A stretch of 60,463 nt of DNA, counting the filler, from Sluysia triapertura (taxonomy: Eukaryota), in the NCBI GenBank assembly GCA_046118255.1. It is 4 parts of 4 records of this genome, joined end to end, with 100 filler letters (N's around TTAATTAATTAA, not from the genome) between each part and the next. Parts side by side here need not be neighbours in the genome. Positions count along the whole stretch, not along the records: positions 1 to 18,802 come from JBJNIA010119750.1; positions 18,903 to 30,740 come from JBJNIA010164925.1; 2 more parts are not named here. The stretch is one strand, 5' to 3'. The stretch's first letter is position 1; every line of letters begins with the position of its first letter. Of this stretch, positions 4,696 through 27,280 are shown in pieces. The notes beneath the pieces were generated by a model that saw nothing but the letters and a program-made list of their open reading frames with translations, ran no database searches and had not been told where the DNA came from. A program made the translations under genes and the position numbers.

Positions 4696-4887
4696 AAGGA
4701 AGTTGCTACACTTAATTACATATTGAATAAAGTCATTATAGAAATTAGTGTTGGTATCTCTTCTAATTACTCAACAATTATAGTTTTTATAATTTATGGG
4801 TTCGCCTATAATCTACGGTTTAAATCCCAAAGAAGACGTAGTTATAGGAATGACAGTCAAAAATATTCTGCGATAAGGAATCCTTAA
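4696..4887 (+). pseudogene. Possible cadherin-repeat-like relic
   Basis: Open frame without ATG, KEVATLNYILNKVIIEISVGISSNYSTIIVFIIYGFAYNLRF, has the LDYE / xVxVxD / STxxVxI / NxPxF spacing of cadherin repeats. Nearby upstream peptides VEIKVQRIRIYPRIYFNGSVSQ and LKGDTDQN also fit. Confidence 0.3.
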
Positions 4888-6649
4888 TCTTTAGTGCACA
4901 ATTCACTAATAAAGTCTAATTCTTTAACAATTGTCAGAGGGTCTGTTAATTAACCTATTAGCACAAAGTATCTTTCAATTTATCTTAACACAATTATCTT
5001 TTATTTTACTTAACACTAATCTACGTTGTTGAACTGTAACAAATTACTTTTTAGACAAAATTAAGAAAAAACTCAGTTATCTCCGATTATATATTATGAA
5101 CAGACTAAATACATAAGTTAGATGCAAAATAAATATGATAAATATATATAGTAGTATATGATCTAGGATTTCTCCTAAGATAATTAATATGAATAAGAAT
5201 TTTAAGATTTTAACCCAGGTGAATATTTGGGCTTAGAAAATGTTTATGTTAATTTACGTATATTTTAACACAAAATAATAATTGTGAACAACTTATAATA
5301 AATAGCTTACGATTTCATGGATGCTCGAAAAATAAAGTGTAATGTTGACTGATAGAACAATTAGTATCCAAATCCAAATGTAATCGATCCACGAGGTGTA
5401 TATTCCGAATCAGGTTCAATAGCTGATACGAATCTTCCAACGAAGTTTTGTGATTTCTCTCTTTAAAATTGTGTGATTTAGCCAGAAATCGCAATCTATT
5501 TATACTAAGTTAATTTTTGTGAACTATACCGAAAGACTTTAGAGTATGCCGGCGATTTATTTGCGGCAATTATTTTATAAAAGAAAAATATGATTATTTG
5601 TTTATCAAAATAAAAGAATTTTATCTAAAATAACAGAAATTTTAATTAAATTTGTACTTATTAATTAATGTAAATTTTTCTAAAGTTCTTTATAAAGTTA
5701 TTAAACAAAATTTATTTACAAAATTTAATAAAAATTTAATATTTTATTATTTTAGGTAATCATATTTTCTTATAATTTTTAATATTTACATAATCAATTA
5801 CTAAAGAATAGGCCTTAATAACACCGTTAACTCTAACTCTGGTCTCTGTTGTTTTTACTTCTAACTCTATGTAACTGCTGTTTTATAGCAGTTTTATGAT
5901 GTTGTAAGAAATTAAAGTTAGAAATTGAACAAGACAGAAATTAAAGCTGTCTACTCTATTTTAGTCGGTAATAAGCCGACTAATTTTACTGATTGAATTT
6001 TGACACCAATTTCCGTCTTTGTTCAAATTCAATCTAATTTTAATGGAATTTGTGGTAAACAATCACCTTATCTCTTAATATCATCTAATTAAAATTTAAA
6101 ATCATTGTTACAATGCCATTATCGTAATAACGTAATTTATCACCTTAATTTAAAGATAAAATATATGAAATAATAAATCTATATCTCACAGGATTATTCT
6201 GCATTAATACGTCGTGCATCAGCCGTACGTTGCAAGTCAAGTTCAATAACATATTTGAATTAGTATCATTATAAGTGTTAGGAATCGTCGGACTGTAGGA
6301 CTGTCGGACTGCAACGTCGAACTTCAAGAACCAATGAACTACGAAGCTGTTGATATAATTAACAAATAATAATGGAATAATTAACAAATAATAAAAAAAA
6401 TTAACATATAATAATATCTGTTTTTTATTTTATTCTAACAATCGAACACTTTATTTTATTTTATTTTGACAATTTGAATAATTTTAGTTATTAGTTATTT
6501 ATTTTTATGGTATTTATTTTTAAATATTATCATTATTATAATACGAACAAATAATAATTTAAACAAGTATTTTAAATTTATAACTTTTGTTTTAATGAAT
6601 TCAAGTTTAATAAATTCAAATTTTGTTTTAATGAATCAAAATCGAAACT

Positions 6650-7335
6650 AGGAATATAAACAACAAACAAGGAAGTAAGGATTGTATATATAAAAGACAC
6701 ACTTTAGAAATAGGTCACACCGAAAAACTTGGGATATCACAAACAGAGAAAAAATTTTCAAGGATCAAGCTATTGTCCATGCATAGGTAAATTTTTATTA
6801 AATAGGTTTCACTATTCTAACCGTAAAAGATAAAATATAAAATAGACTTAAATTGATTGTATTATCCTATACCGTAAACGGATAGGTTAAAATCTTTTTA
6901 AACTTTCAACTATTTTATATCTAAACATTAAGTTTAAGGTACTAAAGTGAATATTAAAATTATTATTATTACTAAACTATTTGTATTCAACCGATTTGTG
7001 AATAATTACTTTAAAGTATTGAGTCTTTGTTGATTAATTTTTATAAAATACAGTTTGTATAAATCAGACCGTAACAGGCTGGTTTAATTTATAAATTCAT
7101 CTATAATTACCAGACCGTACAAAGGCTGGTTTAACTCACAAATTAAAGCATACTAAAAGAAAATTTAACATCTATAACATTACTGTAAGAAGCCTTACTT
7201 CTCTTGTTTTAAAGCCTAATTAGACCGTCGTCCGCTCGTGACGTAAACCGTATCTAATTAGCCGAGCTCAGCTCCAGTCGATAATCTTTTGTAAGTTAGT
7301 TCTAGTTAGGAAAGAACACTTGCAATATTTTGGCA
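6650..7335 (+). mobile_element. LTR-like leader copy (family A)
   Basis: TATATAAAA at 6687, AG/GTAAAT donor at 6787, three bulged-A hairpins (6866, 7061, 7109), a GCTCG/CGAGC hairpin, then AACACTTGCAATATTT-TGG. This parallels 23413-24209. Confidence 0.6.
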
Positions 7336-7429
7336 CAAGACTTCACATTCAAGGAAATTGGTTCTTTTAATAATGATTTATGTATATAGTTGTATCATTA
7401 TTCACCAAAACTGGGACAATGAAAAAAGG

Positions 7430-7594
7430 TGGTGGTTTCTAGAAAATGGCGGCTTTTCGAGTAAGAAAAAAATTATATATTAGTTATATAAATAATTTAT
7501 ATATATATATAACCAAATTACACTTATTTACATTCATTTTTGCAAAAATAAATTGGCGGATTCCAGAAAATGGCGGATAAGAGAGTAGTTACTG
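7430..7594. mobile_element. Terminal fragment of pogo/Tigger-type DNA transposon
   Basis: Ends ...GGCGGATAAGAGAGTAGTTACTG-TA (reverse TA-CAGTAACTACTCTCTTATCCGCC) with repeated AGAAAATGGCGG subterminal motifs. No partner TIR seen. Confidence 0.55.
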
Positions 7595-8469
7595 TATGTA
7601 GTTTTTTGTACAGCACTAAAACAGTAAAAATTGTGTGTGTTCTTACACAATTAAAATAATAAAAAATTTAAAACTTTACATAAATCATTCATCTTCTTAA
7701 CAATCACATCGCATCATTAATTGCGTTGTACAATTTCATTTTATACTTTCTCATCTTCTTTTATTTTGTCTTAATTTATTTTGATCCACATTTGGGCAAT
7801 ACTAATATTCTTAATACTATTTTTTGTTTCAGAAAGGCCTTTAATTTAAGGTCAAGTCCATTGATATATAAACTACTTTAATTACATTCACACATGTTGA
7901 AGCACAAAAAAATATAATTTGTGGTTGTCATTTGTAACAATAACAGGATTCAGATTGTACCTTAAATAATCGTTACTCTATTCTGTGTAATTCCACATTT
8001 AACGTGTTATTTTGAAATAATTCTTGAAATAGTCACAATCACTTTGTATGTAAATTTCTCGAAATAGAATGGTTACAATCAAATAAGTCCACGAAAAGTA
8101 TATTTCCCAAATATAATCAATTACGATCAGATATCTCCCAAATTAATTTTTGTCTTGGATTCAAATAAAAGATCACTTAGATAGATTTGCAGAAGTTTTA
8201 TAACGCATGTGCGTCGTACATCATTTTGAGCGTCTTATTTACAAGTTTTTATCTCGCTTGTAGGTAATAAAATATTTTAATTCCATGATATAAAGTTGCA
8301 ATTAAAATAATATGAAAGTATCATAAATTGTAAATAAAAATATCATAAAATACTATCATTAAGATTTGGAAGTTTTAAGATCCTTTTGATTTAAAAATTA
8401 AAATAATGTATTAAAATATTTACTAAATTTAAAAGCTAAAATAATATATATTTATGTTATATTTATGTT

Positions 8470-8553
8470 GCGCCCTTGAATTAACCGATTACAATAAGTC
8501 AGTAATAGCTTAAATGGAATCCCAATATTTTCAATACTTATCAAAATAAATTT
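8470..8553 (+). repeat. Dispersed ~85-bp repeat, second copy at 42907-42999
   Basis: Shared TTGAATTAACCGATTACAATAAGTCAGTAATAGCTTAA..GGAATCC.AATATTTT.AATAC.TATCAAAATAAATTT. Confidence 0.85.
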
Positions 8554-9969
8554 AAATTATCTCAAATTCTATTAGATTAATAACGGTAAATATTCTACCC
8601 CAACAGAAGTTATATTCTTTAATTCAAATAAATAACAAAACTCAATGTTATGATAATTACAAAAATTTAAAGTAAATCACCGCTGTAACAATAATGTAAA
8701 TGAGACAACTAAAAATAATAATAAAAGGTAAAAATAAAGTTAACAATGACTTTTTTAAATAATGTTAATAACCCGTGCACAACGAAAACCAGATGTCACG
8801 CAATAAAAATGAAGATTTGACAAATACTAATATTGTAAAGGTTGTAAATAAGTATTTTTATTGATATTTTAATATAAAATTATTTATGTTTTATTATTTT
8901 ATATTTTATGTATTTTTATGTTTTGTGTATTTATTAAAAAAATTATAAATATTATAAATACTATAAAAATTATTAAAATTATTATTATTTAAAAAATTCT
9001 AATTACAATTATATTAAAATTAAAATTAACACTTAATAATTTTAAAAGTAATTCAAAAACAAATTTCTAGAAATGAATTGTTTTATTAAATCAAATTTAA
9101 AAAATATGATTTCTTATATATAAAAAACTATATAAACAAAGAGCAGTAGGACCACCATTTTGTCAACTTCTATTTACTAGTGTGGTGGCCTATTGATATC
9201 AGCGACCATTTTTAATTCAAATCAAAAGTGCAATCGCCATTTTATTATCGGTTAATTTCAGTCATCGTTTCGGTTTCTTTTGGGTAATCAACGGCCTTAG
9301 CGATCCAAGTCAATTACAAAGCAGAATTAGTTCTCAAATATTCAATTAGAGAGATATCAGCTCCAAATTATCTTCAAGCAAATTAATTAAGCAAATAAAG
9401 ACATTCCTTCGATCTCGAATACTCTATCATCAATTATTAAATTATTGATTAGATAATAAGTTTATTTTAAATAAAGTGAAACACGCCAGAGTTTCATACC
9501 TTATTTTCAGTTGGCCATTAAGATCAATACAAAATTATAAAGTCATTATCGGGCTAGACCTCTTGTTATAAATAATTTAATATTGTTATTATCATTCTTA
9601 TTATTTGATTAACATTGTTTATACTATCATTTTAATAAGCTTATAATTGTTTTATTTTAATTTCGTCGTATTTACTTTTTGTTACATAATAAACTTTTAG
9701 TCATTTTTAAGTTTTAGTTCATTAGAATAGTGATTCCTAGAAAATAATTGTAGTTTTAGGGATAAAAGATAAATATGTTTTTATACTAATATTTGCAGCA
9801 TTATTATAAACTTAAATACAGACGACAGTGTTGGTCGTTGTTAGCGTTATATTTTATAAGTTATTTGGTTATCTGTCAACATAACTGACGATTTTGTTCC
9901 CTATTGTTTAAGTTAAAGTAAAGAGTATTTTTTATAGTGTTAATCTCGCACATAGTGTTATTCTCACAT

Positions 9970-10890
9970 AATTTTACAGGTACGTCATTAGTAAGTCGCA
10001 TACTGTAAACTGACTCTGAATAATAATAATCCATTTTGCTGATAATTAAGTCTTTTTTAATAGAAAAACAGCAGCACTATTTATATTCTTCCCAAAGAAT
10101 GAAAAACCAAATCAAAATTAAATATTTTTAAAATAAATTGGGCAGAATGTCTCCCACTAATTTATCTTACAAATAGCTAAAAATCAAATAATTAAAGTAA
10201 AATATTTTTAAAAAAAAATTGGACAGAAATGTCTTCCACAAAACTAACTTATATTAAAAATGTCCCCCTGTAAATAAAATTAAAAATAAAATAAAAATAA
10301 AATAAAAATGAAATTAATAAAAATTACGCAGAGCATGGAAATGAGTAGCATGAATCATGTCTTTGTTGTTTGTACTTTGTACTCTGTCATCATCATATCA
10401 TTATAATAATTATTATTATAATTTATTATTATAATTTATTATTATTATAATTTATTTACCATTGTAATAACATCTTGTACTGATCTTTGTAAAGAAAATT
10501 TCATAATACACCTTGAATGTGTGTCTATTTATTTATTAATAAATAAAATGTCATTTTATCCTCGCTAGATCGTAACAAGGCTAATTTAAAATACTGTTCA
10601 TTTAAAGCTGGACCGTAAAAAGGCTAACTTAAAATCTCATAAATTATAATTAATATTAATTAAAGAATTTTTTACGTATTAATAACATAACGAATAAGCG
10701 TTGTTACGTGACTATTTACATAATTATTGAGAACATATGTGACTGTTTACTCAATACATGACTCTTCTAAAAAAGAATTGTACCACTTCTTAAAAGCCTA
10801 ATAAACCACCTTCGACCAGATATAAGACGTTTCTTTTAGGTGGACTTACCTCCAGAATTATATTTTGCACTTTATAAGTTTTTAAGCTAA
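9970..10890 (+). mobile_element. LTR-like leader copy (family A), interrupted
   Basis: The 5' part matches 490-580. Two bulged-A hairpins at 10565 and 10605. The CCACCT...AGGTGG hairpin at 10806-10843 is shared with 24111-24142. Confidence 0.55.
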
Positions 10891-10933
10891 AAATCTTCGC
10901 AATGATATAAGTGAATAGTGTTATTAGGTAATG

Positions 10934-11910
10934 CTAATCCGCAATGTAAACCATCATATAATCATATGTTATTATCAATGCATTATCATCTAATGGATTG
11001 TCCATAATTACAATGTCACCAAGATATCGATAGATGACCATAGGAAATTCAATTGTCATAGTTAATTGTTGGAACGCAAATGGTTTGGTCCTACCCTTAT
11101 AATATCTTACTAATAATAACTTTTGAATCATGTTTAGTCATATTCCAATTCTATAGTTAGTGTAACATTAAATTGTTGATATTTTGTAAGGTCATTAAAG
11201 AATATTATCCAATGTTTGTTTGTTTCTGTTTCAACTCGACATCAGTTCACTATGCAACACTTTATTGAAGATGAATCAAATTAATTTTATTTACCTGTAC
11301 TGTGGCATAAATATCTTTCTGATTTGATGCTAAAGATATTCAAGGCGTGATATTTCTTAGTATATAATTATTTTTATCTAAGTTTATTGTAGCACTATAT
11401 GTAATTGATATACACGATAATTAAATTCATGCTAATAATGTTGACCTTAATTGTGTTATTTGTAGCATATTCATAAATCGGAGATGAAAACAATGGCATA
11501 CCTGTTACCGAAGCATAATTATTTCGATATGGAATTGTATACGGGTCACCGTGGTTGTTATTTTGCGTTAAACATGGATATCGACATCTGTTTGATATAA
11601 AAATAATAATAGTTAGTACTGCTATCCTGAGAGCGATTATAAACAATTAATATTAATAATGATGGATCGTTTCGTAATACTTCTAATACTGTTAAGAGTT
11701 TTCTTGCCTCTTTAATGCGAAGTGTAAATACACTGATTTTATTTTACTCTTACATAATTATAATTAAATTATATGTTCAAAATTGGTTAGATATAAGTAG
11801 AAACGTATGAGTATAAGAAACTAATTTGAAGATACTAAAATCATGTTTATATTAATGAAGAAGTATTATTTATTTCACCTTGATAATTATTGCAAAATCT
11901 AAATGGAATC
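10934..11910 (-). pseudogene. Decayed cadherin-repeat-containing gene
   Basis: Fragments in shifting frames: IPFRFCNNYQGEINNTSSL; YPCLT / ITTTVTRIQF / GMPLFSSPIYEY; FPMVIYRYLGDIVIMDNPLDDNALIITYDYMMVYIAD. These follow the cadherin pattern PFxIxxxxGxI...LD(YE)...YxxxVxAxD and PxLxxTxTVT...PxFxxxxY. Several stops and frameshifts. Confidence 0.5.
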
Positions 11911-12600
11911 TTTCTTAGAGATTAGACTAAGATTAGTGTAATAGTGAAATTAATATTGATATACTATTTTCTGGATTATTTATGAATTAATCAATAAAAT
12001 TTCAAATTTAAAAAATCAAATATACTTTAAAGGAAAGTTAGATTTAACAGTTCAATATTATCACAATATCGCAATCACTTACTCTGGATGAACTCATAAA
12101 TTATAAATTTTGCTATTAAAGTATGATGTCAATTGTGGAAAGCTATTCGAATATTCGAAGCAACTAAAGCAGTTATGAAGTGTTAATTCAAATCAATGTT
12201 AAATGATTAACAATTGATTTTAAAATGGCGTTAATGTAATAAACCTAGGGCGATCCAACTAATGATATACAAATTAAAAATATAAGTTTCCAAAGTTATT
12301 TAAACTTCAATTTTGTTCAGTCATAAAAATTAGAAGGGCGATTTATCAAATTATCTAAAATATCATTTTTATTCAATAATAATAACAAAGAAAAACAATT
12401 AAAAGGGGAATTTCCCAAATTACTAAAAATACTTCACAAAATTTCTTCCAAATTTTATTTTATTCGAAAAAAATATTTACATAATAACAAACATTAAAAA
12501 ATGATGAAGAATTTTGCCAAAAGTATTTAACAATTTGATAATAAAAAATAAAATACTGTGGGAGCTTATTTAATCAAACAATAAAATGCTTTATATAATG

Positions 12601-12650
12601 TGTGAGTTCACCTACGATCCTAAACTTACGAGTTATGGTTAATCCGTAGG
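12601..12650 (+). repeat. Dispersed repeat terminus TGTGAGTTCACCTACGATCCTA (other copies 18581 +, 42456-42485 -), probably an LTR 5' end
   Basis: Three copies share about 30 nt starting with TG. Similarity begins at the same base in each. Confidence 0.6.
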
Positions 12651-12852
12651 ATTTTTAAAGAATAATAATAACGCGAGCTAAAAGATTGCTAAATTCGGTT
12701 CTACGATGATAAGGATCTCTTAAAATATATTAAAATACTTAAAAAACTATTATGATAGTCGATCTACTTCGGTTTCTTTTTTAAATGAAAGATTACTTTC
12801 TAAAGAATTTACGAAGGTTCTTTATTAAACAGAACCGTCAAGGTTTTGTGTA

Positions 12853-13416
12853 CACCTATCCCCCGATTTACACGGTACTTGTTTTACACGTTTTCGCTTT
12901 TACACGGTTTTCCAAATAAGTTTTTTTGTTTTTATCGCACTCTACTAAATGCTACTGTGATTGAACACGTGCGCTGTGTACACATCTCACGGGGAATCCC
13001 GAGCTTATGTGCTGACTTGCTGCACACGCACACTGTGTCTGTATTTCTTCGCATAAAATTAAAGTTTTATCTACGGAAAATTGTATTTGAGTGAAAGTTT
13101 CACAGTTTCAGAAAGATTTAATTTTCCATATTCGTAAATTACAAGTGAGTGCATAATTTAGATTATTATAAATTAACGGCTGTGATTAAAGTAAAATTCA
13201 GAGGGAAAATGCGGAAATTTTGGAGGGAAATGATGGCAATTTACCAAATAGGTTTAATTAAAATAAAAAAATTAAAAAATCATAACTGTTAAATAGCAAA
13301 AATATGCATTTTCTGCAAGCTTTTCGATTTACACGGTTTTGACTTGAAAATTTTTAATTTACGATTTACACGTTTTTCTCAGGAACGTATCTACCGTGTA
13401 AATCGGGGGATAGGTG
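12853..13416. mobile_element. Intact Tc1/mariner-pogo-type MITE (564 bp)
   Basis: Perfect 25-bp TIRs (CACCTATCCCCCGATTTACACGGTA at 12853-12877; reverse complement at 13392-13416), TA on both sides, internal TTTACACG subterminal repeats. Confidence 0.93.
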
Positions 13417-14859
13417 TATTATTAATATTAGTATTCGATTATATCAAGAAACTTCATCGAAGTTATGGCTGCCTATAACAAAGCACAAGTTACTTATAGA
13501 ATAAAATAGAAATAAAAGGCAAATGCAAATTGCCGAAAAAGTAACAAATGAATATTTAGAAGATTCGTTAGAATTTGAAATCCTGCTAATTTTACTCAAG
13601 AGGTCATAAATGACACAAACCAAACACATGAGTTGTGTCGACGTATGATGATCACGTCATATTGTTTCGACAATTATTTCAATAACTATTTCGAATAAAA
13701 TAACCATTTATTCGGAATATACATTTTATTGATCAACTATGTGTAAAGGTATTTTATTGCCTTGTTTATGTTACTTTATTTATTAATATAAATTTTTTAG
13801 TTCTAAATTTAATTTTGTTTGTTTTGTTAAAGGCTTTAAGCCTAAGTTAAACGTTTTAAACCTAAAAAAGTTATAATTGAAATTTTTAATGCAATTCATA
13901 TAACACCCACGACATCCATAATTTTCAATTAACATCCAACTGCAGATATCTTATTATAATCAGACAACAAACCCGTAATCCATAAATATTACAATACGTT
14001 ATGCAAAAATCTCATCGCCAAATGTATCTATATGCTGCAGCGCTTTTTCGCGAACACAAAACTGTAGTAATTTAGCATAATTCTTTATCTATATTTTCAA
14101 TATTTATCTTTGCTCAAAATTTTAGATTGCATAAAATATATTCATTTTAAAAAGTATAAGATGCATTTTTAATGCTAATTGCGTTATAAATGCAATAAAT
14201 TTTATTAGTAAGTACTTGACAAAAATTAGTCAAAAAATAACAAAAATAAACTAACACTGTTAAAAAATCGGTTGAAAAATGAAATTCTGGAAATATAGAC
14301 ATACTTTAGATCCAATTCTTTACAACGACGAATACTTAATTATAATTAAAAATCAAAACCGACTTGTATTACTAATATGTTATTGTTAATAAATTTTAAA
14401 AATAAAACTTTATATAAATTCAGTTTAGGAAATAGAAACTATAAATATGTGGCTAACACAACATGTCATGGATATATTGAAAAGGTCTGTATTAATCCAA
14501 GAAATATGGCCGAAGTGATTAGATAATTATGATATTTGCTTTATTTTGCATTTAGAACTAGAACTAGAACAAATAACGATATTTATGTAACTCGAAAACT
14601 CACGTACAGATTATTGTTAGTATAGATCACGTTGCATAGTATTCGATTTATTAAAACAATAATCACATATTAAAATAATTTTATATAAAATGACCGTTTC
14701 GTTTATTAGCATGATTGATTTTAGACAACAATAACTTGATTGTTCAGAATGAATTTTTAGATTTCAAATAATTTACTGCAATGTTTTTTAATTGCCACGA
14801 TAATTAATTATAATTGTTTGAGGTAAAAATTTTAAATTAAAATAGATATTTAAAAATCA

Positions 14860-15400
14860 ATTATTTTTAAAATACAGATAACTTAGTAACTTCACATTCA
14901 AATCTTTAGATTTCAGATTATTATTTAAGGAAGTTATATATGCCGAAGTTTTAAAAAGTAAAGCTAAATTTGTCTGATTAAGAGTCAAAATGTATTAATA
15001 CTTATTTATGTGATAATACATTAACTTAAATTGAATATAAATCTAATCAAATATAAAACTTATTTTCAACAACACGTAACGGTACCTCAATTTCAATAAC
15101 GCATCTAGAATGATCTCTTATTTGATATACTTTTACTACATACACTCATTTTAATACATAGAAATTTAACTTTATAATAATGAAAATTAAAACTGATGAT
15201 TTTACGTTATCTACGTTGACGTGTTTCGAACTATCTCGGTGTTCATAGCACTGATAACTTTCATAAATTTATTTTATTATATGTGGTACCCGCTGTTGTC
15301 AAACATCGTACGAAAAGTTATTGATTAAAAATGATTTTCAAACAATTTGTATTAAATTAATTAATAAATTTTTTAAAAAAGCCTTTACGTTAAGGCTGTG
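14860..15400 (+). repeat. Unclassified interspersed repeat family B, copy 1
   Basis: Shares TTACGTTATCTACGTYRACGTG (15201) and TTAAATTAATTAATAAAT with copies at 22.4-23.2, 34.4-35.1 and (reversed) 46.2-47.0 kb. Boundaries are approximate. Confidence 0.65.
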
Positions 15401-16247
15401 ATATTCTTATGAACCTCACAATGAAATTTGTAATCGGAATGCTGCTACACACCTAAATTAAATTAAAACATATTGTAAGAATGCGTTTAATCTGAATAAG
15501 AAAATGACTAACATACATAAATAAAGAATAAAACCGATAAAAACAATCGTTGACAAAACTTATTCTTGCCATTACTAAAATGTTTTAAAACTTTAATCAA
15601 GTTGTTACATTATTTTTTTACTCATTTTATTTCAGTTAGCAAATTTTTAGCTTAATTCAAAAGTATCATATGCAATATTTTCATTATAAACGTAGTTTAC
15701 TCTTAATTATGCGAAATATTTCAAAAAGATTAACATTTATTCTCACATTTTCGTTAACATTATAGGCGTTCAAGACAGAAGCATAACGATGTAAACGTTG
15801 CTGTAAAGAATTATATAAATCTAAAAAATATGAAAATAAAACAAAGGTTAACAGAATCACCTGAATAAATTTCCAAATTTAAACTATTGTTTGTGATAAG
15901 TTCGTCTTTTAAATATATTCATCAATTATTACATTTAGTCTATTGTTGAGAACAAATACATACTAACCACCACAAAAAAATAGCAAAAGTAACTAATATC
16001 AACCACGAAATCCCTGAAAGTATACCTATTTTTTTCCACATCATCTATTAAATATTTCTAAAGTAAATAACACAAAGTACCACATCCATTTCAAACATTA
16101 CTGCAAATTTTCTATGAATGCTGTTTAATGCTTATAACTTTCATTTATAACCAAATATATGACCTTTGACTTTTAAAATTATATTTAGGTATCAAAATTA
16201 TAAAACAAAACAATAGTGTCATAATATTAAAATTTATATTAAATGCA

Positions 16248-17399
16248 TTAAACATTTTTGTCCAGAATATCATCGAAATTTTTTATCTGTTCCCATAAAT
16301 CATCTTCGTCAGCTTCATCTGTTAAATTAATTTGATCAATTAAAACAGAACTTGGCTCAAAAGCTACGTTCATCTAAATAAAAAATAATATAACAAATCA
16401 AATATTACTTTATATAAAACATTCTTAGATTTTAAATCAAACACCCGTATGCAAAAATCTTTCGAAACTACAATTAGAATATCTGTTTTACTTTTTCTTC
16501 TACCAATGCTAACTCCAAATTGAACATGCATTTCATTTATACAACTTAGTCCAATGGAACCCACAAATTTTTCATATCTAGTTTCTTTGTTAGGTATTTC
16601 ACATCCATTCTTAATGTATTTGAAATCAATTATTCCCAATTTTCCTGAATTTGATCCTGCAATCACTTTCTTACTTTCAAAAGAAATTAATGAATTAATT
16701 AAATTATCTTGAAATAAAGCAACTTGATTTGCTTTTCTTTTATTTGATCTAATGTCAAACAGCTGTACACGTCCGTATTTATCTCCACAATATAAAATAT
16801 GATTATTTTCTTTGTCATATTCAATAGATCGAATGTCAACTTTAGCCGGAAGAGACAAAGATTTGTTTCCCATTGTTTTGCTTCTGAATAAAATGCTGCC
16901 TGTATTTAAATCATTAACGTGTAATTCAACATTTTCACCACCCAAAGCAACTAAATCATTTCCAATGATACGCATTGCTTTATACGTTTCATATTTATCA
17001 AATAATTTTGCAACAGTGTTATTAATTACTCTAACGCAGTTATTATAACCGACAATGATTTTATCATTTACAAAGTCGTAATCATATAGCTTTCCACTAT
17101 TTTCGTTAATAACCAATTCACCTTCCGAATCAAAATTACTCAACTTATATAACTTATTATCATCAACTAAATAATACTAAGAAAATAAGTAAAGGTAAAA
17201 TAATACTTCATTCTGAAACTTTTTGAGTAAAGAAATACTATGAAAATCATAATTATAAGTTGAAATAAAAGCATCCTTGTTTGTTCCAAATAATCTACCG
17301 TCAATAACTATATTTAATTTAAAAATTAATTATTAAATTACTTTTAATAAACTCTTTTCTTGAACTGATTATAGATATGAAATTTATAGGAATTGTCAT
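16248..17399 (-). CDS. WDR74: WD-repeat protein 74 / ribosome biogenesis factor Nsa1 (350 aa)
   Basis: Exons 17399-17342, 17307-17207, 17176-16409 and 16373-16248 join in frame across GT-AG introns of 34, 30 and 35 nt. Motifs VALGGENVELHVNDL..FRSK..GNKSLSL, GRVQLFDIRSNKRK, AGSNSGKLGIID, DFCIRVFD and acidic DEDDLW match WDR74/Nsa1. Confidence 0.88.
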
Positions 17400-18802
17400 T
17401 AGTTGTTAATTTTTAATTCGAAATATTTAAACAAATTCATATAATATAAAAACCCAAACAAGAAATTTAACTAAATATTTATAATATTAGAAAATTAATA
17501 TGAAATTAACCTTAACATGTTGGTATAATTAAGAATGGTGATATAAAATATTAAAAAATATTCATATGATTATCGTACAAAATACATATACGATCTAACA
17601 AGTTTTGAAATAACATAAAACTTTAAACATTACATAATGAAAAGTGGATTAAAATGTATGTGATTATTTTAATTTATTTGATTACATTCTGCCAAACTAT
17701 TAAATAATTTGAAATAAATTCAATAAACAAATATCTTAAATTTTGAGATACTAAAAACGTTTAATTTAATCTAGATTTAATTTAATTCATATATTTGTGT
17801 TTTTAATTTAAATTGTAAATAGTAACTCAATAACATAATTAAATTAGTCCGAAATCTCGATATATTTTTAATAATCAAAAAAATAAACAAATTATTATAA
17901 TTAGTTTACATTGATAATGAAAGAAATTAATTTCGTTACACGATCAATTATTCAAATACAGGCACAGACGAAAAAATGTTAGTAACTGCACAAATACGGT
18001 AAAACGTGAATTAATTAAGCACAGTAATGTTGGGATTATCCAACTGTGGATTAGTAAATGTGTGAGAATCAAATAGAACTATGAAATAAAGGAAGAAGTG
18101 ATACAAATTAATTGAACATTATAAATATTGTCTGAATAAGAATCATGAGAGTAAAAACATTTATAATAATGTTAACAGCTGAAGAATGCCTTAGAGTTCC
18201 AAAGACCTATATAAATAGTGAGACATTATAGAAGCTTGAAATGGACTTAGAGTACCTTTAAAGACATTCAGTACCTTTGAGCTTGTATTCCTAAAACATT
18301 GATAAGCATCTAAGATCTTCGAGTAATCTTATAAAGTGTTTAAAAATTATAAAATATTTGAGAAATAAAATCATTATTATCGGTATTAAGAATAAATGCA
18401 GTATAGGAAAGTAGAAAAATGAATCAGGAAGGTGAAGGTGAAAACATCTAGAGTCTCATGAATGCCTTACAAACTATTAAATAATCAGAACTTTAAAACA
18501 TCATTTAAATAATCAATAATATTGTCAATAATTGATGAAATGTGTGAAATGATAAAATCCTGTAATGTAATTTTCTTAATTGTGAGTTCCCTACAATCTT
18601 AGACTTACGCACTCAAGGGCTAAGTTATAGGCAGTATTTTAGAAGATATTATGGAGGTACTAAATCAGTTACACTTATTTAGGTAGTTAATATGAACGGA
18701 CTCTTCTCGGCAATAATATAATATAGAAATTAGACAATTAAACTTTAAATGACGTCACTTTGTGCTTAATCTACTAAGTACAGTAAGCTGAGATTAAATC
18801 AA

Positions 18803-18902
18803 NNNNNNNNNNNNNNNNNNNNNNNNNNNNNNNNNNNNNNNNNNNNTTAATTAATTAANNNNNNNNNNNNNNNNNNNNNNNNNNNNNNNNNNNNNNNNNN
18901 NN
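18803..18902. other. Assembly gap with artificial six-frame-stop linker (same at 30741-30840 and 49344-49443)
   Basis: 44 N + TTAATTAATTAA + 44 N, identical three times. Confidence 0.95.
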
Positions 18903-19046
18903 TACTCTGATTTAAATTATAAAAGTATTGATTATGCCTTCATGAAATATGTTAAAAGTCTAAATGTTGATTTCATGAAGTACTCTGATTTAAATTATAA
19001 AAGTATTGATTATGCCTTCATGAAATATGTTAAAAGTCTAAATGTT
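18903..19046. repeat. 78-bp tandem repeat abutting a gap
   Basis: TACTCTGATTTAAATTATAAAAG... starts at 18903 and again at 18981 with identical sequence. Probably a collapsed array. Confidence 0.9.
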
Positions 19047-20729
19047 TTCCTAGACTTTTTATTTTGTAATGCCAAGCTTAAAAATTTCTTTATTTTTAAA
19101 TTCAGTTTATTAATTGTAATCTTTTTTAAAACGAAACCCACTATAGTGTATGATGTTTTTATTGTGGCTCATTTTATTTCTTGTAGAATTAAAAAACAAT
19201 ATATAAACCTAGTTCGTTGCGTTTTTTCCTCAATTAATAAAATTTTAAATTGCAACATATTAATAGGCCTTAAGCCACCTTTTGCTTTAATTAAACCTAG
19301 CAACTTTGATCTAAGCCCCAATATAAATATACAACGGCCATTACATTTAGAAATTTTACAACCCAATAATACTGACATGATAATGACTATAATTCATGAG
19401 ATGATCCAGTACCATTTCCATGGTGTTGTAACATTTTTTTATTTATTTTATATAATATAATTAATTATATATTTCAGTTATTTAAATTTTTTCGGGAAGT
19501 CCCTTTTTTTCTTTTTAAAAATAAATAGATAAGTAAATATGAATTATTTTTGGGAAAATCCCCTTTTGAATAATAAAAATTATTTTTTTGGTAATTCCCT
19601 TTTATTTATAGATTTTGAGAATCATCCTTGAAAATAAGAATTAAATTTCTGCGTTGCGTCACTTTGGTTGATGTAACTTTTGTTATTATTAAATTGATTT
19701 TATTGATAGCCAATAATTTTTCTTTAGATATTTACTAAATGTTTTAGCTAGTTTTGATAATAAATTAGTGTCAGTTTGAATACATTTGTATCTTTTGATT
19801 TAATAAATATCATTTCTGGAATAAAACAGAATGTAGTAATTTATATTTGATTCTGTGATTATTAAGTTTAAGAAAATTTCAGATTAAATTAACGCTGTTA
19901 TTGAATTTTTTTATATTTTTCTCATTTAAAGACAAAGACTGTCTTTGTGTGATAATTCTTTTCAACTTCTATTATTAAAGGAGTTCAATTTATTTGTTAG
20001 GTTGTCATCACAACTCTACAAAATAATTTTAAGATGTCATAATGACACCTTAAAATTATTTAAAACTATTTAAAATTATTAAAAATTTATTTAAAATCGT
20101 AGAAAATGTTTCACAACAATTTATTAATCATTAAAATCACTTAAAAAACAATTATTTTCCAAAAAGAAATTTATTTATATTCTAGAACATTCCATCGATT
20201 TTCATTGGATGATGACTAGTATATAAACTAACATCAATATAATGAAAATCTCCATTTGCATTAATCTCAATCTTACGCTATTTTGGAAATTGATATACAA
20301 ATATTGGAAGATTATTCGGTATTGATTATCACAAATTAGATCTTTTAGGAGCTGTAGTTCATACACCAAGTAATTTGTTTATGTTAAGTTCGATATTAGT
20401 TTTATTTAAGAAGGCTAATATTATAAAATACACCTAAAATCACACTCTATTTAGTAAAGTTTAAGGTTCCCAGATATATTGAGGGGTAAAATAGAGTGCA
20501 AAATTATATTTAATTCTATTAAATACTCCATATTGTTTTAATATTAAAATAATTGTTTAAAATTTTAATCTGTTTCTATCTTTTATTTTAGATATCTGAA
20601 TTTTTGTAAATTTTTTGAATAAAACTTAATAGACATTTGTGATTTTATTTAATAATTGAGTATTAAATTATTATAATCTGACCCCCGAATATGTAGATTA
20701 TAAGTTTACGTTACTAAGATTGTCTTAAC

Positions 20730-21260
20730 TTATATTGTTACAGAAGTGTCCTCTTTGCCACGTAAGATGCTTAATGTAACCGGATCTTGCTCAATTTTCT
20801 ATTTTGCCGAAGGTTTAGATCTAAACATTAACAATATTGCTTATGGAAATGTAGGAAATTTAGAAGCAATAAATTCCGATTTTTAGTAAAATGTTCGATT
20901 TCTGATGAAGCAGCTTCAAATGTTTTTTTATAAATGTGGTACCTCAGCGTCATTGTACAAAAAATTAAAACAAAATCAAAGTTGTATCCAAATGAACTTC
21001 TTTTTAAAGACGCACTTTCCTAGCTTCAGATAAATAGGTCACAAACTCTTCTATTTAAGGTATAATCAGCCGTTCTTTTACAAATACATAAAAGTAGTAT
21101 TTTTCGATTATAATGATTATTTCCACTACTCCTTCAGAAAACTTGATCATGCTCATTAACTAATTAAAGTGAACTTATTTCTTGGTTGGTATGTGTTACT
21201 TTTAGACGATTTTCCTGTTCACAATAAAATAGATTTTAAAAATTTCTGAGAGCGCCTGAA
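20730..21260 (+). mobile_element. pogo/Tigger (DDE_1) transposase relic
   Basis: VLLLDDFPVHN near 21195 resembles the LLLDNxxxH catalytic motif. Upstream YPNELLFKD resembles YxPxQIFNxD. Heavily decayed. Confidence 0.4.
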
Positions 21261-22429
21261 ATAATTTTCATTCTCGATTGCCGAATTAAGCAGAGCAATA
21301 CGCGAGCTCAATTTCCATTAAATATTTCTTCTACCCTCAGACTATTCTGTCAAAAATCAATACATACGACCAAATGTGGTGGCCAATTTCTTCACATAAA
21401 ATTTTATTACATCATATTACACTAAAAGTTATACTTCTACAACACCTAAAGCATTCATAACATCAAAAATCATTAAATTTATATTTTAAATCTAGTTTAA
21501 AACAGTAAACTAAGTGGAATTTCTTTTAACACCTTTAACTTTGTTATTACTGTCTTATGATACTCCTTCATAATTTTATTTTTATCTTTTATTTTATTTG
21601 CCTTTCTCTTCCGTTTCTAACATTGAAGGTGAAGACCGCCGTCCACTTGTTATTTATTCACAGCTATGCTTATACTCGTTCGAACACCTATGATTATCAA
21701 CAAGTTAGCAAATAAACCACTTCTACGGCACCTTTTACTACTTATTTATGCTAAATAAAGAATTAACAAAACAAGAAGAACAAAAGTGTAGAAAGAAAGA
21801 TGTAGAAAGAAGAAAGAATTTATATGTTTTTATTTGCATTTTATATTTTTATCATCAATATTACTTTTTCATTTTTATAATAATAATTATTATTATTAAT
21901 ATTATTCTTGTTATTATTTATTATTATTTTTACTGTACATTCACTATTATCATTTTAATTATTCTTATGCTTAGTAACTATTTTAACTGTCATTAGCAGT
22001 TAACAGTTTTTAACAGTTTTTCATTAGAAAATTTAATTTCTGTCAACAAATGACAGTGTTGCGTTGTTGTGTTTTTTGTTTACTAATATCCCTCTTTAAT
22101 AACTAAAAATCAAATAAAACTGAATCTCGATATATTCTTATATAACAATTACACAAATAAAATCTTTTATATGACAAATATAATTCTATAAATCAACCTC
22201 TTTATATTACAATTATAGTTAAAATAATTCTTTAAATCAAATTCTTTAATAAATTATTGTCTACCTTTTTTTAAAAATCACAGAGATTACACAACGTAAA
22301 TGCTGTTACCACAAATAAAATATAAAATAATGATAAAAACAAAATGAATCTTAACTCTCTACTAACCACGTAAACTTATCTTTATTTTAATATTATTACT
22401 GAAGAAAAAGATTTAATGAGTGTTATCTA

Positions 22430-23220
22430 CAACTCAATTGAATTCAGAGTCCTTACAGCAAGAAGTTGTTCCAATAGTTGGCTATTGACTATTTTGTCGC
22501 TTGTTACTGTTATCGTTTTTTGTTTTTTGTTGTAAAAAGTTAGCTCTTTATATAGTATCCAGATAATTGTCAGATAGTCGGGAATTCAACTTATTTATTT
22601 TGCATGTCTACTACACATGCTATTTTCTTAGAGTCGGTTTTATGCTGACCAATTACTAAGATGAAATTTTAATATTAATTTCCTATGCCCGACAATTATC
22701 TGGAGATAATGAGTTCTGTGAATAACAAACCCATATCTCTTTAAAAGAGCCAAATCACAATTATATATCACAATTGGAATTATACAAACAGATATAAAAA
22801 TGCATCATCCTAATTTACCTATACTTATATTCTAGTATGTGACTTCTTTTAATAACAATACTTTATATCATACGTAACAAGTTAATGGTACGTCGCACGT
22901 CAATCACAATATCGTATACTAACTTGTTTCTTTACAAGCTTTAATTTGATATATATTTTATTAATACTTAGACATTGGAACATGTTTAACCTTTAATTTT
23001 AAATTACAAAATTAATTAAAATAACTATTTATTACGTTATCTACGTCAACGTGCTTCGCAACACTTCATCACTAAACCAATAATAAAACTCAACATGATA
23101 AACTAAATTTGATATCATGAGCAAACATTTTTATTGACTTATCAAATTAAATAAATTTTAATTAAGTTAATTAACAAATGTACTTTAATATGATAACAAA
23201 TATTAACCCTACGAAGGGTT
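22430..23220 (+). repeat. Unclassified interspersed repeat family B, copy 2
   Basis: Motif at 23032-23053. Collinear similarity with the reverse complement of 46240-47040. Confidence 0.65.
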
Positions 23221-23399
23221 ATTTCTTCAAATTTCTCATTACTTTATCTTGATTTAAGTATTTTATGTACTTATCTTAACATAACATTTTATCATAATAC
23301 CTAATCTTAATTTTTTTAATAATGTTGAACTTATTCTGCTATCCTGAATCTTGACCCTTACATCTACCTATACCTTTACTAATCCCAACAATTGGATCA

Positions 23400-24225
23400 A
23401 TTAAAAATTTAGTATAAATTTAGTATAAATATTTAGAAAAATTTTAGAAAAGTCCAGAGTTACAGTTACAGTGTTACTTAAACAGAGTTACAGATAAAGG
23501 ATACGCAAAATGAAACAAGTAAATTTTTTTATATATCGTCCCATGCTAAAGTAATTTTTTATTTTATAAGTTTATCGTCTTACCGTAAGAAAGGAAGATG
23601 TAAAATCCACTTAAACTATATTCACTTTGTCTAGATCGTAAAAGGCTGGAGCAACTTACAATATGAATTATAAAAACACCAAGGGATTAAAAATTATTAT
23701 TGTTATTATAATTATCTTTAAGTTTTTTTGTTTGTACAGTTAGTTTTAAGTGTACTATTTTTTAAAAGTATTAATAAGTCTTCGTAAAACTTCATTTCTA
23801 TTTTAATAACATTATTTTATTGTGAAAACCAGACCGTATCTGACTATTTCAAAATTAACAAAATTATTTATTTGAAGTTACTAGAACGTACAAAGGCTAG
23901 TGCAAAATAGAATTTTTCGAATACTAGATCGTAATACGATTAGTTTAATATAAAAGTAAACTCTGTGATTAATAAAATAAATTAACGTATTTTTGTTAAC
24001 TCTATATTTTACAACGGAAAAAGTAAAATCTTCATATTCTAACACAGACTTAGTATAGACAAATTATTTATATTCTTGTAGTTTGCTTTAAAATTCTAAT
24101 AGCACGTCTTCCACCTTGATATAAACCGTATATATTAGGTGGACTCGATTTTCAGTTTTTTGTAATTGTAAGTTTTTAGCTTTCCCAATAAAACATTTGC
24201 AAAATTTGGTTCTCAGAGTGAGGAC
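23400..24225 (+). mobile_element. 5' LTR-like leader (family A) of a Gypsy element, with PBS-like TGG at 24207
   Basis: TATAAAT at 23413 and 23424, GTAAAT donor at 23519, four complete bulged-A hairpins, CCACCT/AGGTGG hairpin, AATAAA, then TGGTTCTCAGAGTGAGG. Followed by an AAGTT-rich UTR and gag. The primer tRNA was not identified. Confidence 0.6.
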
Positions 24226-24829
24226 CAGAAGTATTTTTACAATGACTAAAACATTACGTGCTAAGTTAAGTTGATATTGCAATTAAGTTGAAGTTGAATT
24301 ATTAAGTTAAGTATTTTGTTTAAGTTTTAAGTTTACGTATTAAGTTAAGTTTATTTTAAGTTAAGTTATTTTGAGTTTTTTTTTGATTATTACGAAGTTA
24401 TATTTAAGTATTAAGTTGTTGAATCTTTAGTTATTAAGTTATTTATTTACAGTTTAAGTTGCATTATTTTATTGCTAATTCGTTATATCTAGAAGTGTTT
24501 ATTGATTGTGCTGAATTATTAATTTTGTGAATTCACGCTGCATTACTAAGATCAAGTAAAGTTTTAAGTTACGATTATTGCTGAATACTTGATAAGTTTT
24601 TAAGTTTTGATTATGTCTGAGATTATTGTTTATTGTGAATTTAATTATTAAGTTTGTTAAGTCAAGTGTTTAAATTTAATTTGGTTATTGTGATAAATTA
24701 AACGAAGTAATAAGCATTTGAATTTTAAGCATTTACGTTTAAGTTTTAAGAATATATAAAAATAATAATAAAGATAAAACTAAGAAACCTAAGAAAGCTT
24801 TAAGAAATACTTCATTAGAAAAATTTATA

Positions 24830-25400
24830 ATGACAGTTCCACTTGACAAATTTAGAGACTGTATGTCTCAAATGATTCAAAGCATTAAGGTAATAGTGAT
24901 ACTTCCCGAAATGCGTAGGTTTAATGGCACCGAAGAAGACCTTTGTGACTTCCTATTTGAATTTGATAGTATAGCCGAAACTAAAAGCTGGACAGAATTA
25001 GAAAAATTAATCGGTGTAAAGATACAAACTTATAAGGAAATATGTAATGCATGTAAACAAAATTGAAATATATTTGTTGATACTTTTACTGAGGAAATAG
25101 CGTTAGAAAATATAGGTTAATATTACGCAAAGATGCTTAATATAAGGAAACTGAAACCTAATGAAACAGTTTACGAATACACTTGCGTACTTAAAAGTTT
25201 AGCAGCAAGAGCTAAAGTTTCAGAAGATAAAAAGGAAGCAACATTAATAGATAAGTTTAAAAACGGACTATGTCCAGAATTATGAATTTATGTAAGTCTA
25301 ATTGATAACCTACCACTTAAGGATACAGTTAAGAAATTAAGAAGTATTGAGCGAACTGGTAATGAAGAAAGAAATGATGTAAATTATATAGATAATAATA
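24830..25400 (+). mobile_element. Ty3/Gypsy gag pseudogene (capsid region)
   Basis: Reading through in-frame stops gives RRFNGTEEDLCDFLFEFDSIAETKSW..EKL ... KPNETVYEYTCVLKSLAARA ... LIDKFKNGLCPEL, the typical retrotransposon gag pattern. Confidence 0.8.
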
Positions 25401-26149
25401 GTAAGAATATAGAAAATAATTCTAGTGAACCCCCTAAGCATAAGTATAAGAATTCTTTTGAGAATAATAGTTTTAATGATGGTAATAGTATCAACAGTAA
25501 TAATTATAATTTTCGAGGAAATAATAGAAGAAATACGAATATTTTTAGACCGAGAAATAATTATCAAAATGTAGGAAGAAAAGTTAGGAGTTTGGTGGTT
25601 CAGCCGATTAGTGCGATCAATATTACATCATTAACAACAATCATAGCCACGAAAACTTTACCACGAAAAAAATAATAATATATTACAACATGTTTCACTT
25701 ACACCATCCCATACTTTCACCATCACATTTCAGCTATAGTCATTACATTTAACAATAAAGTCATAATCATCTAATATAAATTAAATTTTAAGTCAATAAC
25801 ACGTCAAGCTTTACAATAAATGTAATCCTCATAGTCATCCTATCATCGTTATAGCTCCGCACCTTTTATTATATTTTATTATGCTTTATTATATTATGTC
25901 AAATTGTATATTGTATTTATGCAATATTTTTATGTTTTATTAATAAATTAAAGAAACAAAAGGAAAAAGACAAATTGTTTGAATTAAATAAAACTGGTCA
26001 AAAACTTCGAGCTTGAACTAAAAATAGAACTTTTCAAAACATCGAAATGCTTTAAAATGTTACGAAAACTTTGAAATGTTACCTATAGAAAATTATAAAA
26101 TGATACAGAGATGCTATTTCAAAATGAAGATTACGTTGAACATGATGGA

Positions 26150-27060
26150 CTCAATACTATCATCATTTAGTCACCGGATCTTCTACCAGGTGATTCCAAA
26201 TGCAAGAAGTTTGAAATACAATAGGATACAAGTCAAGGAGGAGATAAATTCATGCTGGCACACGACAATTTTAAGTGCAATAGATGCATAGCAGCCAAGG
26301 ATGATTTAAAGTTCTTAGTAATCATTAAACTGACATCACCTGCTGGGTTTGATGCAGATATAATGTTGAACCTACGGTTCAGAGCTCAGATTATTTACTA
26401 CTATATCACTATTCAAAAATTTATAATTAATTTAGATCTGTGGATCACGAAATATTGTTTATTTTTTGTTTTTATATATGATAGTTTGAAATGCGAAAGA
26501 TGGACGATAGTCACATATAAATTAAGTCATAATATTAATATTAAAGTGGCATGGCCAATCATGTTACGCGTAGATATTGTGTTGTTGTTCAGTGTTCAGA
26601 TTGACTACTGTGCGAATATTTTTTGCAGGTTCACACGAAGTGACCCGGCGTGGATTTTAGCACGTTGTAGTTTAACGCATAGTTTCACCTTTAATAAATC
26701 ATCTATACATGTGACAAAAGTAGTACACAACCACTTTTTTGTATTCATATTTTTTGTGTTATAAGTCTTTGCGTTTTTATTTAAAATTTTTAAATTTTAT
26801 TTTTTAAAAATTATTCGATTTTTAAATTGTATAATCCCCAATAATTTTAATGAGAAAGTTAGTTCTATCTTCGTGTTAACACGGAAAGAATTGAAATCTA
26901 TTATTTCAAATCACTGCTACGAACTAGTGCTGTGGTCCTGCTTTCTGTGCATGGATTTGCTACCGATACGGTTCAATGTTCAATTCACTGTTCAAACTTG
27001 TCTACACGTAGAATCAACAAAAGATTGTTGATGACATCCACTCTGAGAACTACACGTGGC
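26150..27060 (-). mobile_element. Nested opposite-strand Gypsy gag-pol relic
   Basis: Minus-strand fragments in order: PGHFV*TCK (zinc knuckle end), IILGCYASIALKIV (protease ILG), YFKLLAFGIT (RT LPFG motif). The plus-strand ORFs here are shadow frames. Confidence 0.5.
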
Positions 27061-27280
27061 AAGTATACATGGATTGTAATAGAAGTTGCCGTTAATAGAA
27101 TTATCATAATTACTAAAATAGTTGCCCAGTTTATTCCAATAGTGATATGTGAACAACATTATCTTATGTATTTAAATAATTAAAAATTGTTTTCCTTATT
27201 TTCACATAAACGACGAGAATTTTTATAATAATAATAAATTTTCTAAGTGCATTAGGCACCTGAGTAATGCTTTTATAAAT

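Follow-up and report, generated by a model that had tools for sequence, protein, structure and literature searches.

Three diverged LTR-like copies in animal DNA carry an array of bulged-A hairpins, likely a repeated protein-docking signal on element RNA

In the operator hairpin of the RNA phage MS2, a bulged adenine lies on the 5′ arm two pairs below a 4-nt ANYA loop, the trans-activation response (TAR) hairpin of human immunodeficiency virus (HIV) carries a bulge below its loop, and retroviral packaging signals usually lie in the leader between the primer-binding site and gag. Excerpts of the published work, cited here and below by PMC identifier, place the MS2 operator over the start of the cistron that it represses, where it acts on translation (PMC4751978), state that binding at the Qbeta operator needs a loop of 3 nt below which the upper stem has 4 bp (PMC11724954), and describe R-U5 stem-loops as recurrent in long terminal repeats (LTRs), with roles in elongation, polyadenylation and export (PMC2664473, PMC3601003). 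How LTR retrotransposons choose and control their own RNA is poorly defined even in Ty1 and Ty3 (PMC4974528); Ty1 packaging depends on nt 237–380, and retrosome localisation does not require R (PMC4974528). Here we analysed a 60,463-nt stretch of DNA from Sluysia triapertura (GCA_046118255.1; four parts joined end to end; G+C ~24%), hereafter the window, in which three diverged LTR-like copies carry an array of bulged-A hairpins, likely a repeated protein-docking signal on the RNA of the element. The motif array is real, constrained and RNA-like, lies inside a probable Gypsy-type LTR and is apparently undescribed: no description of an array of this design in a Gypsy LTR was found in open PMC and bioRxiv papers.

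Bulged-A hairpins in three homologous copies

The nine hairpins of a preliminary description of the window were all recovered, position for position and letter for letter, on the plus strand. In each, an unpaired A bulges from the 5′ arm two pairs below the loop (9/9, with an upper-stem mismatch in one and a third pair possible in two), and the loop, of 6–8 nt, begins with GTA. Bulge A, inner C-G pair and loop-start GTA were constant in 11 of 11 slots, a count that includes two decayed hairpins. Directly 3′ of all nine we found N-Y-A-A (background ~0.07 per site), a feature absent from the preliminary description; with constant bulge, loop start and tail, the motif spans 22 nt.

We assessed the enrichment and strand of the motif with several descriptors. 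Requiring at least four of five lower pairs gave 10 sites on the plus strand (the nine and a decayed one with its bulge at 6820) and none on the minus strand, compared with a mean of 1.3 and a maximum of 5 in 200 local dinucleotide shuffles; adding the 3′ tail returned exactly the nine (shuffle mean 0.075), although both descriptors were built from these hairpins and the shuffle comparison is therefore partly circular. In a less circular test that used sequence-only cores (A-Y-CGTA with GR 3–5 nt later, stem not required), at least four of five lower pairs formed at 9 of 10 plus-strand cores inside the three units and at 0 of 11 elsewhere (Fisher’s P = 3 × 10−5). Since the nine hairpins represent five slots in three homologous copies, their occurrence on one strand counts once, not nine times.

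The hairpins had no Rfam match at gathering score or with a significant E-value, as the check suggested with the preliminary description now confirms: one search returned a single match (the tRNA at 2194) and the others five, the best with E = 1.5, none on a hairpin, and there was likewise no match to Rfam ribozymes or spliced-leader RNAs. A covariance model, a further check suggested there, was built from five hairpins and picked up all four remaining members (E = 0.001 to 2.6) along with 12 non-member matches, without any new copy. Two further likenesses were set aside: that to the 5′ hairpin of flatworm spliced leaders is without support in the excerpt of PMC3795323, and an 11-nt resemblance of one hairpin (c2 H4, below) to the 3′ end of small-subunit rRNA concerns 1/9 hairpins and was taken as chance. 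Two or three other CCGTA...GG hairpins, at 28755–28830 (plus strand) and 2015–2045 (minus strand), have loops of 10 nt and lack the canonical bulge geometry; one of them folds with z = −2.6.

The hairpins are five homologous slots across three diverged copies (c1, c2 and c3) of one non-coding unit of 650–800 nt. Slots run in the order H1, H2, a gap of ~197 nt, H3, H4 and H5, spaced 43–53 nt apart; c1 holds a decayed H1, H2, H3 and H4, c2 holds H4 and H5, and c3 holds H1, H2, a decayed H3, H4 and H5. In the list below, z refers to the hairpin folded alone and pair probability to folding of the whole unit.

6680–7324, plus strand: c1, LTR-like unit, 5′ edge not found; TATA-like box at 6685, decayed H1, H2, H3, H4, 3′ block, TGCA end, TGG at 7331
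6815–6835, plus strand: c1 H1, decayed, outside the preliminary list; bulge A 6820, four of five lower pairs, upper mismatch
6866–6886, plus strand: c1 H2; bulge 6871; z −2.5; pair probability 0.97–0.99
7063–7083, plus strand: c1 H3; bulge 7068; z −3.3; pair probability 0.89
7109–7130, plus strand: c1 H4; bulge 7114; z −2.7; pair probability 0.89
10450–10901, plus strand: c2, alignable in its 3′ part only, edges approximate; H4, H5, 3′ block; no TGG after its end
10564–10585, plus strand: c2 H4, weak; bulge 10569; z +0.8; alone, its predicted fold differs
10607–10628, plus strand: c2 H5; bulge 10612
23410–24201, plus strand: c3, LTR-like unit, 5′ edge not found; TATA-like boxes at 23413 and 23424, H1–H5, 3′ block, AATAAA at 24187, TGCA end
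23577–23599, plus strand: c3 H1; bulge 23582; z −3.1; pair probability 0.98–1.00; lower stem unlike the others yet paired
23630–23650, plus strand: c3 H2; bulge 23635
23828–23848, plus strand: c3 H3, decayed, outside the preliminary list; bulge 23833, three of five lower pairs
23880–23901, plus strand: c3 H4; bulge 23885; AAA tail 23904–23906, near-invariant among related contigs
23923–23944, plus strand: c3 H5; bulge 23928; an upper T-A pair replaces C-G

The three copies aligned with ~60% column identity, and local alignment scores for the three pairs (186, 123 and 102) exceeded their shuffle maxima (112, 85 and 75). With all hairpins cut out, c1 and c3 still scored 163 compared to 94 ± 8 (maximum 117) in shuffles, so that the spacers, previously taken for unrelated AT-rich DNA, are alignable between these copies, and the NYAA tail is common to all nine hairpins. 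Divergence is too high for c1 and c2 to be the LTR pair of one element. Two repeats lie upstream of units. A very high-copy repeat at 23300–23377 (summed depth 21,000–23,000) stops just before c3, and an old dispersed family of ~680 nt, 68–80% alike, occupies 5959–6235, 15125–15227, 22930–23266, 34541–35110 (plus strand) and 46188–46866 (minus strand); pieces of this family lie upstream of c1 and c3, and we rejected it as part of the unit because its copies elsewhere are without hairpins.

Covariation, predicted folding and variation among related contigs

Stem pairing was tabulated for seven pairs in nine hairpins, in statistics that draw on a small sample and ignore the kinship of the copies. 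Among the 63 cells, 52 were Watson-Crick, 8 G·U, 2 A·C and 1 A·G, and double changes from the commonest pair occurred in 11 cells, across 6 of 7 pairs. Lower pairs L1–L5 were paired in 43/45 cells versus 32.4 when permuted (0 of 20,000 permutations as high), and the outer pairs L4–L5 in 16/18 versus 12.0 (P = 0.005). For the five hairpins with 7-nt loops, double changes were found at 3/7 pairs, with 15 of 500 shuffles as high, and slid control structures paired at 3–51% compared with 91%. The strongest cases were c1 H2 and c3 H1, whose lower-stem letters are unrelated yet form 5/5 pairs; lower stems of c1 H2 and c3 H2 differ by two double changes and one wobble. The preliminary description had the lower-stem sequence change completely while pairing is mostly kept; 7/9 lower stems share letters. 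The accompanying argument that wobbles occur on the plus strand only (8 G·U vs. 2 A·C) is weak, since related contigs show 3 of the 8 G·U cells to be minority states.

Folded alone, four of the nine hairpins had z-scores of −2.5 to −3.3, four of ~−0.9 and one of +0.8 (no fold), while in whole-unit folding the three c1 hairpins and c3 H1 reached pair probabilities of 0.89–1.00. RNA folding energy beat DNA energy in all nine on the plus strand, and the DNA folds were weak (0 to −4.6 kcal/mol).

We subsequently quantified variation among contigs related to 23300–24400 (891 contigs at a likeness threshold of 80%). Depth summed over contigs, which is not copy number (single contigs give 10–20), was 370–1460 over H4–H5, 2800–6000 over the 3′ block and 3950 at the unit end and primer-like site, and fell below 125 beyond; several contigs run from the H4/H5 region into the 3′ block through dissimilar spacers. 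In the 40 of 125 variant rows shown, seven variants lay in c3 hairpins, one in a loop and six in stems, and five of these six improve pairing, with a Watson-Crick pair in place of a wobble or mismatch (four at 66–92% of depth). Over 23862–23962, covered by 77 contigs, the arms had 12 variant counts over 18 positions (maximum 2) compared to 86 over 21 positions in the spacer (P = 0.002), a difference seen for G/C (7 over 8 vs. 51 over 5) and for A/T (5 over 10 vs. 35 over 16), while the AAA tail had one variant count over three positions and the H5 bulge none. Spacer variation per position was ~6-fold above that of the arms, a contrast inflated to an unquantified degree by recruitment via likeness to c3 and by changes private to c3.

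The carrier element and other features of the window

The unit is likely the LTR of a Ty3/Gypsy-type family, with the array inside it, probably in R/U5, upstream of the primer-like site. In c3 the slots are followed by the 3′ block, AATAAA at 24187, TGCA at 24201, TGG 5 nt later (24207), a leader and a gag-like frame; in c1, CA at 7324 is followed by TGG at 7331 (6 nt on), and c2 has none. The array thus lies 3′ of TATA-like boxes, 5′ of CA and TGG, and sense to gag. The preliminary description had placed the hairpins in retroelement leaders upstream of gag, of which the retroelement and the sense orientation stand; the array sits 5′ of the primer-site-like TGG, in what is probably an LTR, and not in the leader from the primer-like site to gag, and a gag downstream of the cluster was seen for one of the three (c3).

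7216–7267, plus strand: c1 3′ block; 9-bp helix 7216–7224/7253–7261, crossed by a 5-bp helix 7234–7238/7263–7267
24095–24143, plus strand: c3 3′ block; helix 24095–24101/24133–24139, crossing helix 24110–24116/24137–24143; highest summed contig depth of the unit
24207–24224, plus strand: primer-binding-site-like stretch starting with TGG, 5 nt after CA at 24201
24230–24829, plus strand: C-poor leader of 600 nt (C 36, G 89 of 601), with no bulged-A hairpins between the primer-like site and gag
24830–25675, plus strand: Ty3/Gypsy-type gag frame of 281 codons, decayed, with three in-frame stops and without a clear CCHC knuckle

A piece of the gag frame matched Retrotrans_gag at E = 0.007, with 17 bits against a cut-off of 24.1 and hence below it. 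A phmmer search of 1.84 billion proteins returned 10 matches at E ≤ 0.001 (best 5 × 10−7), seven of them annotated as Retrotrans_gag or zf-CCHC, two as unrelated repeat proteins and one unlabelled. The best relative is a 1130-aa Gag-like protein in which a CCHC knuckle is fused to a Monjiviricetes-type fusion glycoprotein domain. Word-based searches gave no gag homologs, an alignment of Gag proteins offered no segment of sufficient conservation for a pattern scan, a search with a 54-aa stretch of Gag gave one weak 21-residue match, and four DNA pattern scans of viral and metagenome contigs gave no relatives of the array (4 viral-contig matches without hairpins, 0, 0, and 1 bacterial chance match). 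Because the c3 copy is truncated, with no pol found downstream, its place in the Ty3/Gypsy superfamily is taken from gag. A second decayed gag-like region lies at 27176–28300 (plus strand), with a CCHC-pattern motif in the frame 27514–27810 and no Pfam match.

The crossing helices in the 3′ block of c1 and c3 possibly form a pseudoknot. The block recurs beyond the array, at 7216–7267, 10796–10843, 24095–24143, 505–541, 9973–10009 and 38902–38995 (plus strand) and 4772–4851 (minus strand), with a TAA..CGT core inside an outer helix of 6–9 bp that still pairs in 6/7 copies although its letters vary from copy to copy; copies outside c1–c3 have no bulged-A hairpins upstream. The primer-site-like stretch itself (24205–24229, plus strand) folds into an 11-pair hairpin with a 3′ arm ending in ACCA, and a similar stretch lies at ~27035–27053 (minus strand).

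Elsewhere the window holds an intron-split Vps26 gene (51850–54165, minus strand), a WD40 protein gene (16370–17176, minus strand) and a scrap of DDE_3 transposase (33192–33392, plus strand), together with a 78-codon open reading frame at 31705–31941 (minus strand) that resembles a neuropeptide precursor, with a signal-peptide-like start, dibasic sites and no Pfam match. The intron-split Vps26 and the neuropeptide-like frame indicate that the window comes from an animal. A search with Vps26 gave two matches, one at 73% and one from a mosquito at 53%. A tRNA-like gene called as Ser(CGA) at 2193–2266 (plus strand; 74 nt, without a long variable arm, Rfam score low at 32.9 bits) may be a tRNA-derived repeat. 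Perfect 27-bp inverted repeats ~570 bp apart (12851–12877 and 13392–13418) are likely part of an element like a miniature inverted-repeat transposable element, and a short hairpin-like repeat family with a GTAAG core occurs at 12595–12656 (minus strand), 42431–42493 (plus strand) and ~18583–18625.

Explanations for the array and comparison with known systems

We consider it probable that the array is an RNA-level signal under selection; more tentatively, and short of even confidence, we favour a repeated protein-binding RNA element that controls expression of the retroelement. An old internal duplication of the 43–53-nt unit would have created the array, which selection would then have kept. 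Transcription would proceed from a TATA-like box upstream, and each slot would fold in the element RNA and become a docking site for one protein, which would read bulge, loop start and tail by their letters and the lower stem as shape. An RNA-binding protein of the host or of the element, bound in several copies, could then promote elongation, 3′-end choice, export or translation of the full-length RNA, a mechanism modelled on HIV TAR, the R-region stem-loop of murine leukaemia virus (MLV), the Rex-responsive element (RexRE) of human T-cell leukaemia virus (HTLV) and the R-U5 post-transcriptional control element (PCE). Should AATAAA at 24187 be the poly(A) signal, R would contain the array, which would then be present at both RNA ends. 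Lower stems conserved as shape only, the variable loop length and the one-sided bulge fit a single-stranded ligand, and conservation of the unpaired bulge, loop start and tail fits protein contact. Because the array lies upstream of the primer-site-like TGG, inside a probable LTR, expression control is favoured over Gag packaging, though position discriminates among RNA roles by analogy only. The earlier reading as a multivalent protein-binding RNA signal for Gag packaging, export or translational control survives as a structured, repeated, constrained signal in gag sense, with Gag packaging less favoured given the LTR position.

Several observations weigh against expression control by a protein-bound RNA array. 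Whole-unit folding outcompetes four of the nine hairpins (c3 H2, c3 H4 and both in c2) and shifts the register of c3 H5, and strand preference is mixed, with the plus strand folding better by at least 2 kcal in 4/9, the two strands within ~1 kcal in 4/9 and the minus strand better in 1/9. YRG/CTR letters are common to 7/9 lower stems, such that much of the pairing is plain sequence conservation, and the informative stem changes fall mainly in two hairpins (c1 H2 and c3 H1). One of the six stem variants among contigs would break a pair unless its partner also changes, and the contigs come from one sequencing run, possibly the assembly’s own source, and were recruited by likeness to c3. A-CCGTA letters reappear in the 3′ block, where no hairpin accompanies them, as would also be expected of a DNA site. 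As for the carrier, no pol domain (protease, reverse transcriptase, RNase H, integrase) was found in the window translations (43 of 126 listed fragments and six read-through frames), and no near-identical second LTR, target-site duplication or 5′ TG end was found in the window.

Other roles at the RNA level were weighed alongside. A multi-site packaging or assembly signal read by the element’s own Gag, like packaging-signal-mediated assembly in MS2, is on balance unlikely; the conserved, covarying structure and its gag-sense orientation fit it, MS2 assembly relies on multiple degenerate stem-loops (PMC4751978), and Ty1 Gag shows a preference for Psi RNA and also binds a 5′ pseudoknot (PMC8396678, PMC4974528), with a possible pseudoknot 3′ of the array here. 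Such a signal, placed in the LTR, would tag LTR-flanked cargo RNAs too. However, the array lies upstream of the primer-site-like TGG and is absent from the 600-nt leader, the gag frame is without a clear knuckle, and Ty1 Gag has a similar affinity for different RNAs (PMC8396678), unlike what so exact a motif implies. We rate as slightly less probable again a natural aptamer-protein pair, in which a Gypsy-type lineage would have convergently evolved an MS2-like multivalent operator in its R region (bulged A, GUA loop, 3′ AAA tail) read by a protein that the element encodes, either Gag or an accessory RNA-binding protein. Very unlikely, in turn, is docking without any protein, whether tertiary or intermolecular, which would compact or dimerise the RNA. 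GNRA loops dock on tandem C-G pairs, and here each unit has a G...A loop (A-ending in 7/9) that would fold GNRA-like in its GUA..A form, with a CC:GG tandem in 5/9 that could receive the loop of another hairpin; the loops are of 6–8 nt, not tetraloops, and docking leaves the constant bulge and tail unexplained.

Double-stranded sites for a transcription factor 3′ of the LTR promoter, with a core ACCGTA and an imperfect inverted half-site, would account for the YRGAYCGTA-type letters in 7/9 hairpins and for the hairpin-free core in the 3′ block, and flatworm LTRs carry arrays of DNA sites in the form of heat-shock elements (PMC12801592), but we rate such sites as quite improbable, as c1 H2 and c3 H1 have unrelated lower-stem letters and still pair 5/5, half-site spacing varies by 2 bp, and cores pair in 9/10 cases inside the units vs. 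0/11 elsewhere. A neutral by-product, one palindromic unit duplicated internally with arms kept matched by template switching, carries the same slim probability as protein-free docking: the regular 43–53-nt period and shared tails show duplication, and 2/11 slots have decayed, yet palindrome correction would remove a bulge whose A is kept in 11/11, the unpaired loop start and tail are also conserved, and the spacer is ~6-fold more variable per position than the arms. The faintest chance goes to a single-stranded DNA signal in reverse transcription, acting in strong-stop DNA transfer or integrase end processing; R/U5 does pass through single-stranded DNA intermediates, as is established for retroelements, but the DNA folds of the hairpins are weak (0 to −4.6 kcal/mol) and single-stranded copying begins with the minus strand, in which the bulge would be a T on the 3′ arm.

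Under the favoured protein-binding element, what the array means depends on the partner. RNA motifs in invertebrate Gypsy LTRs are almost undescribed, and a 22-nt motif repeated five times, with many genomic copies, offers an unusually sharp handle on a binding partner. A host protein would mark a host pathway exploited by these elements, while an element-encoded one would give a retrotransposon its own counterpart of the TAR/Tat or MS2 system, and possibly a means of tagging RNA; were the aptamer-protein pair true, the array would pick out RNAs to be packaged, or switch them from translation to packaging and back, and could find use as an orthogonal RNA tag. Until the partner is known, the interest is that of specialists.

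Compared with phage operators, the MS2-operator-like architecture claimed in the preliminary description holds for the bulged A two pairs below the loop (9/9) and fails for loop size, loop sequence and position: the MS2/R17 operator TR has a 4-nt ANYA loop, whereas these hairpins have loops of 6–8 nt starting with GUA in a eukaryotic LTR context, and the nearest hairpin ends at 23944, 886 nt from the gag ATG at 24830, with no start codon covered. A leviviral coat protein had no Pfam match in 24 + 49 translations of the window. With that operator the array shares the single bulged A on the 5′ arm, and with the dispersed packaging signals of the phage (PMC4751978) the multiple degenerate copies. 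It may function in the manner of a multi-site operator (PMC4751978), yet it falls outside the MS2 class. The Qbeta operator likewise has a bulged A in a short hairpin and differs in its requirements, as the upper stem here is 2 bp (3 bp in two hairpins) and the loop 4–8 nt, which places these hairpins outside that class.

Ty1 and Ty3 are alike in carrying 5′ structures near the primer site of an LTR retrotransposon RNA, with a possible pseudoknot here too (PMC4974528, PMC8396678), but the excerpts of these papers describe no repeated bulged-hairpin array and place Ty1 packaging signals inside GAG. The planarian Gypsy elements Burro and GYPSM1 share a Gypsy-type Gag with a retrotrans_gag motif (PMC6431247); the excerpt of that paper describes no LTR RNA motif, and the gag here is short, decayed and without clear knuckles. 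In position the array resembles the retroviral R/U5 elements (HIV TAR, HTLV RexRE, the MLV R-region stem-loop and R-U5 PCE; PMC2664473, PMC2836548), which are structured sense RNAs in the transcribed part of the LTR, transcription being presumed for our unit. Vertebrate retroviruses have one or two such hairpins of larger size, in contrast to the invertebrate Gypsy-type element here, whose five small units share one design and a 3′ tail. As in the R/U5 control elements, structure is kept better than sequence, which both covariation and contig variation indicate here in a small sample and with statistics that take no account of phylogeny.

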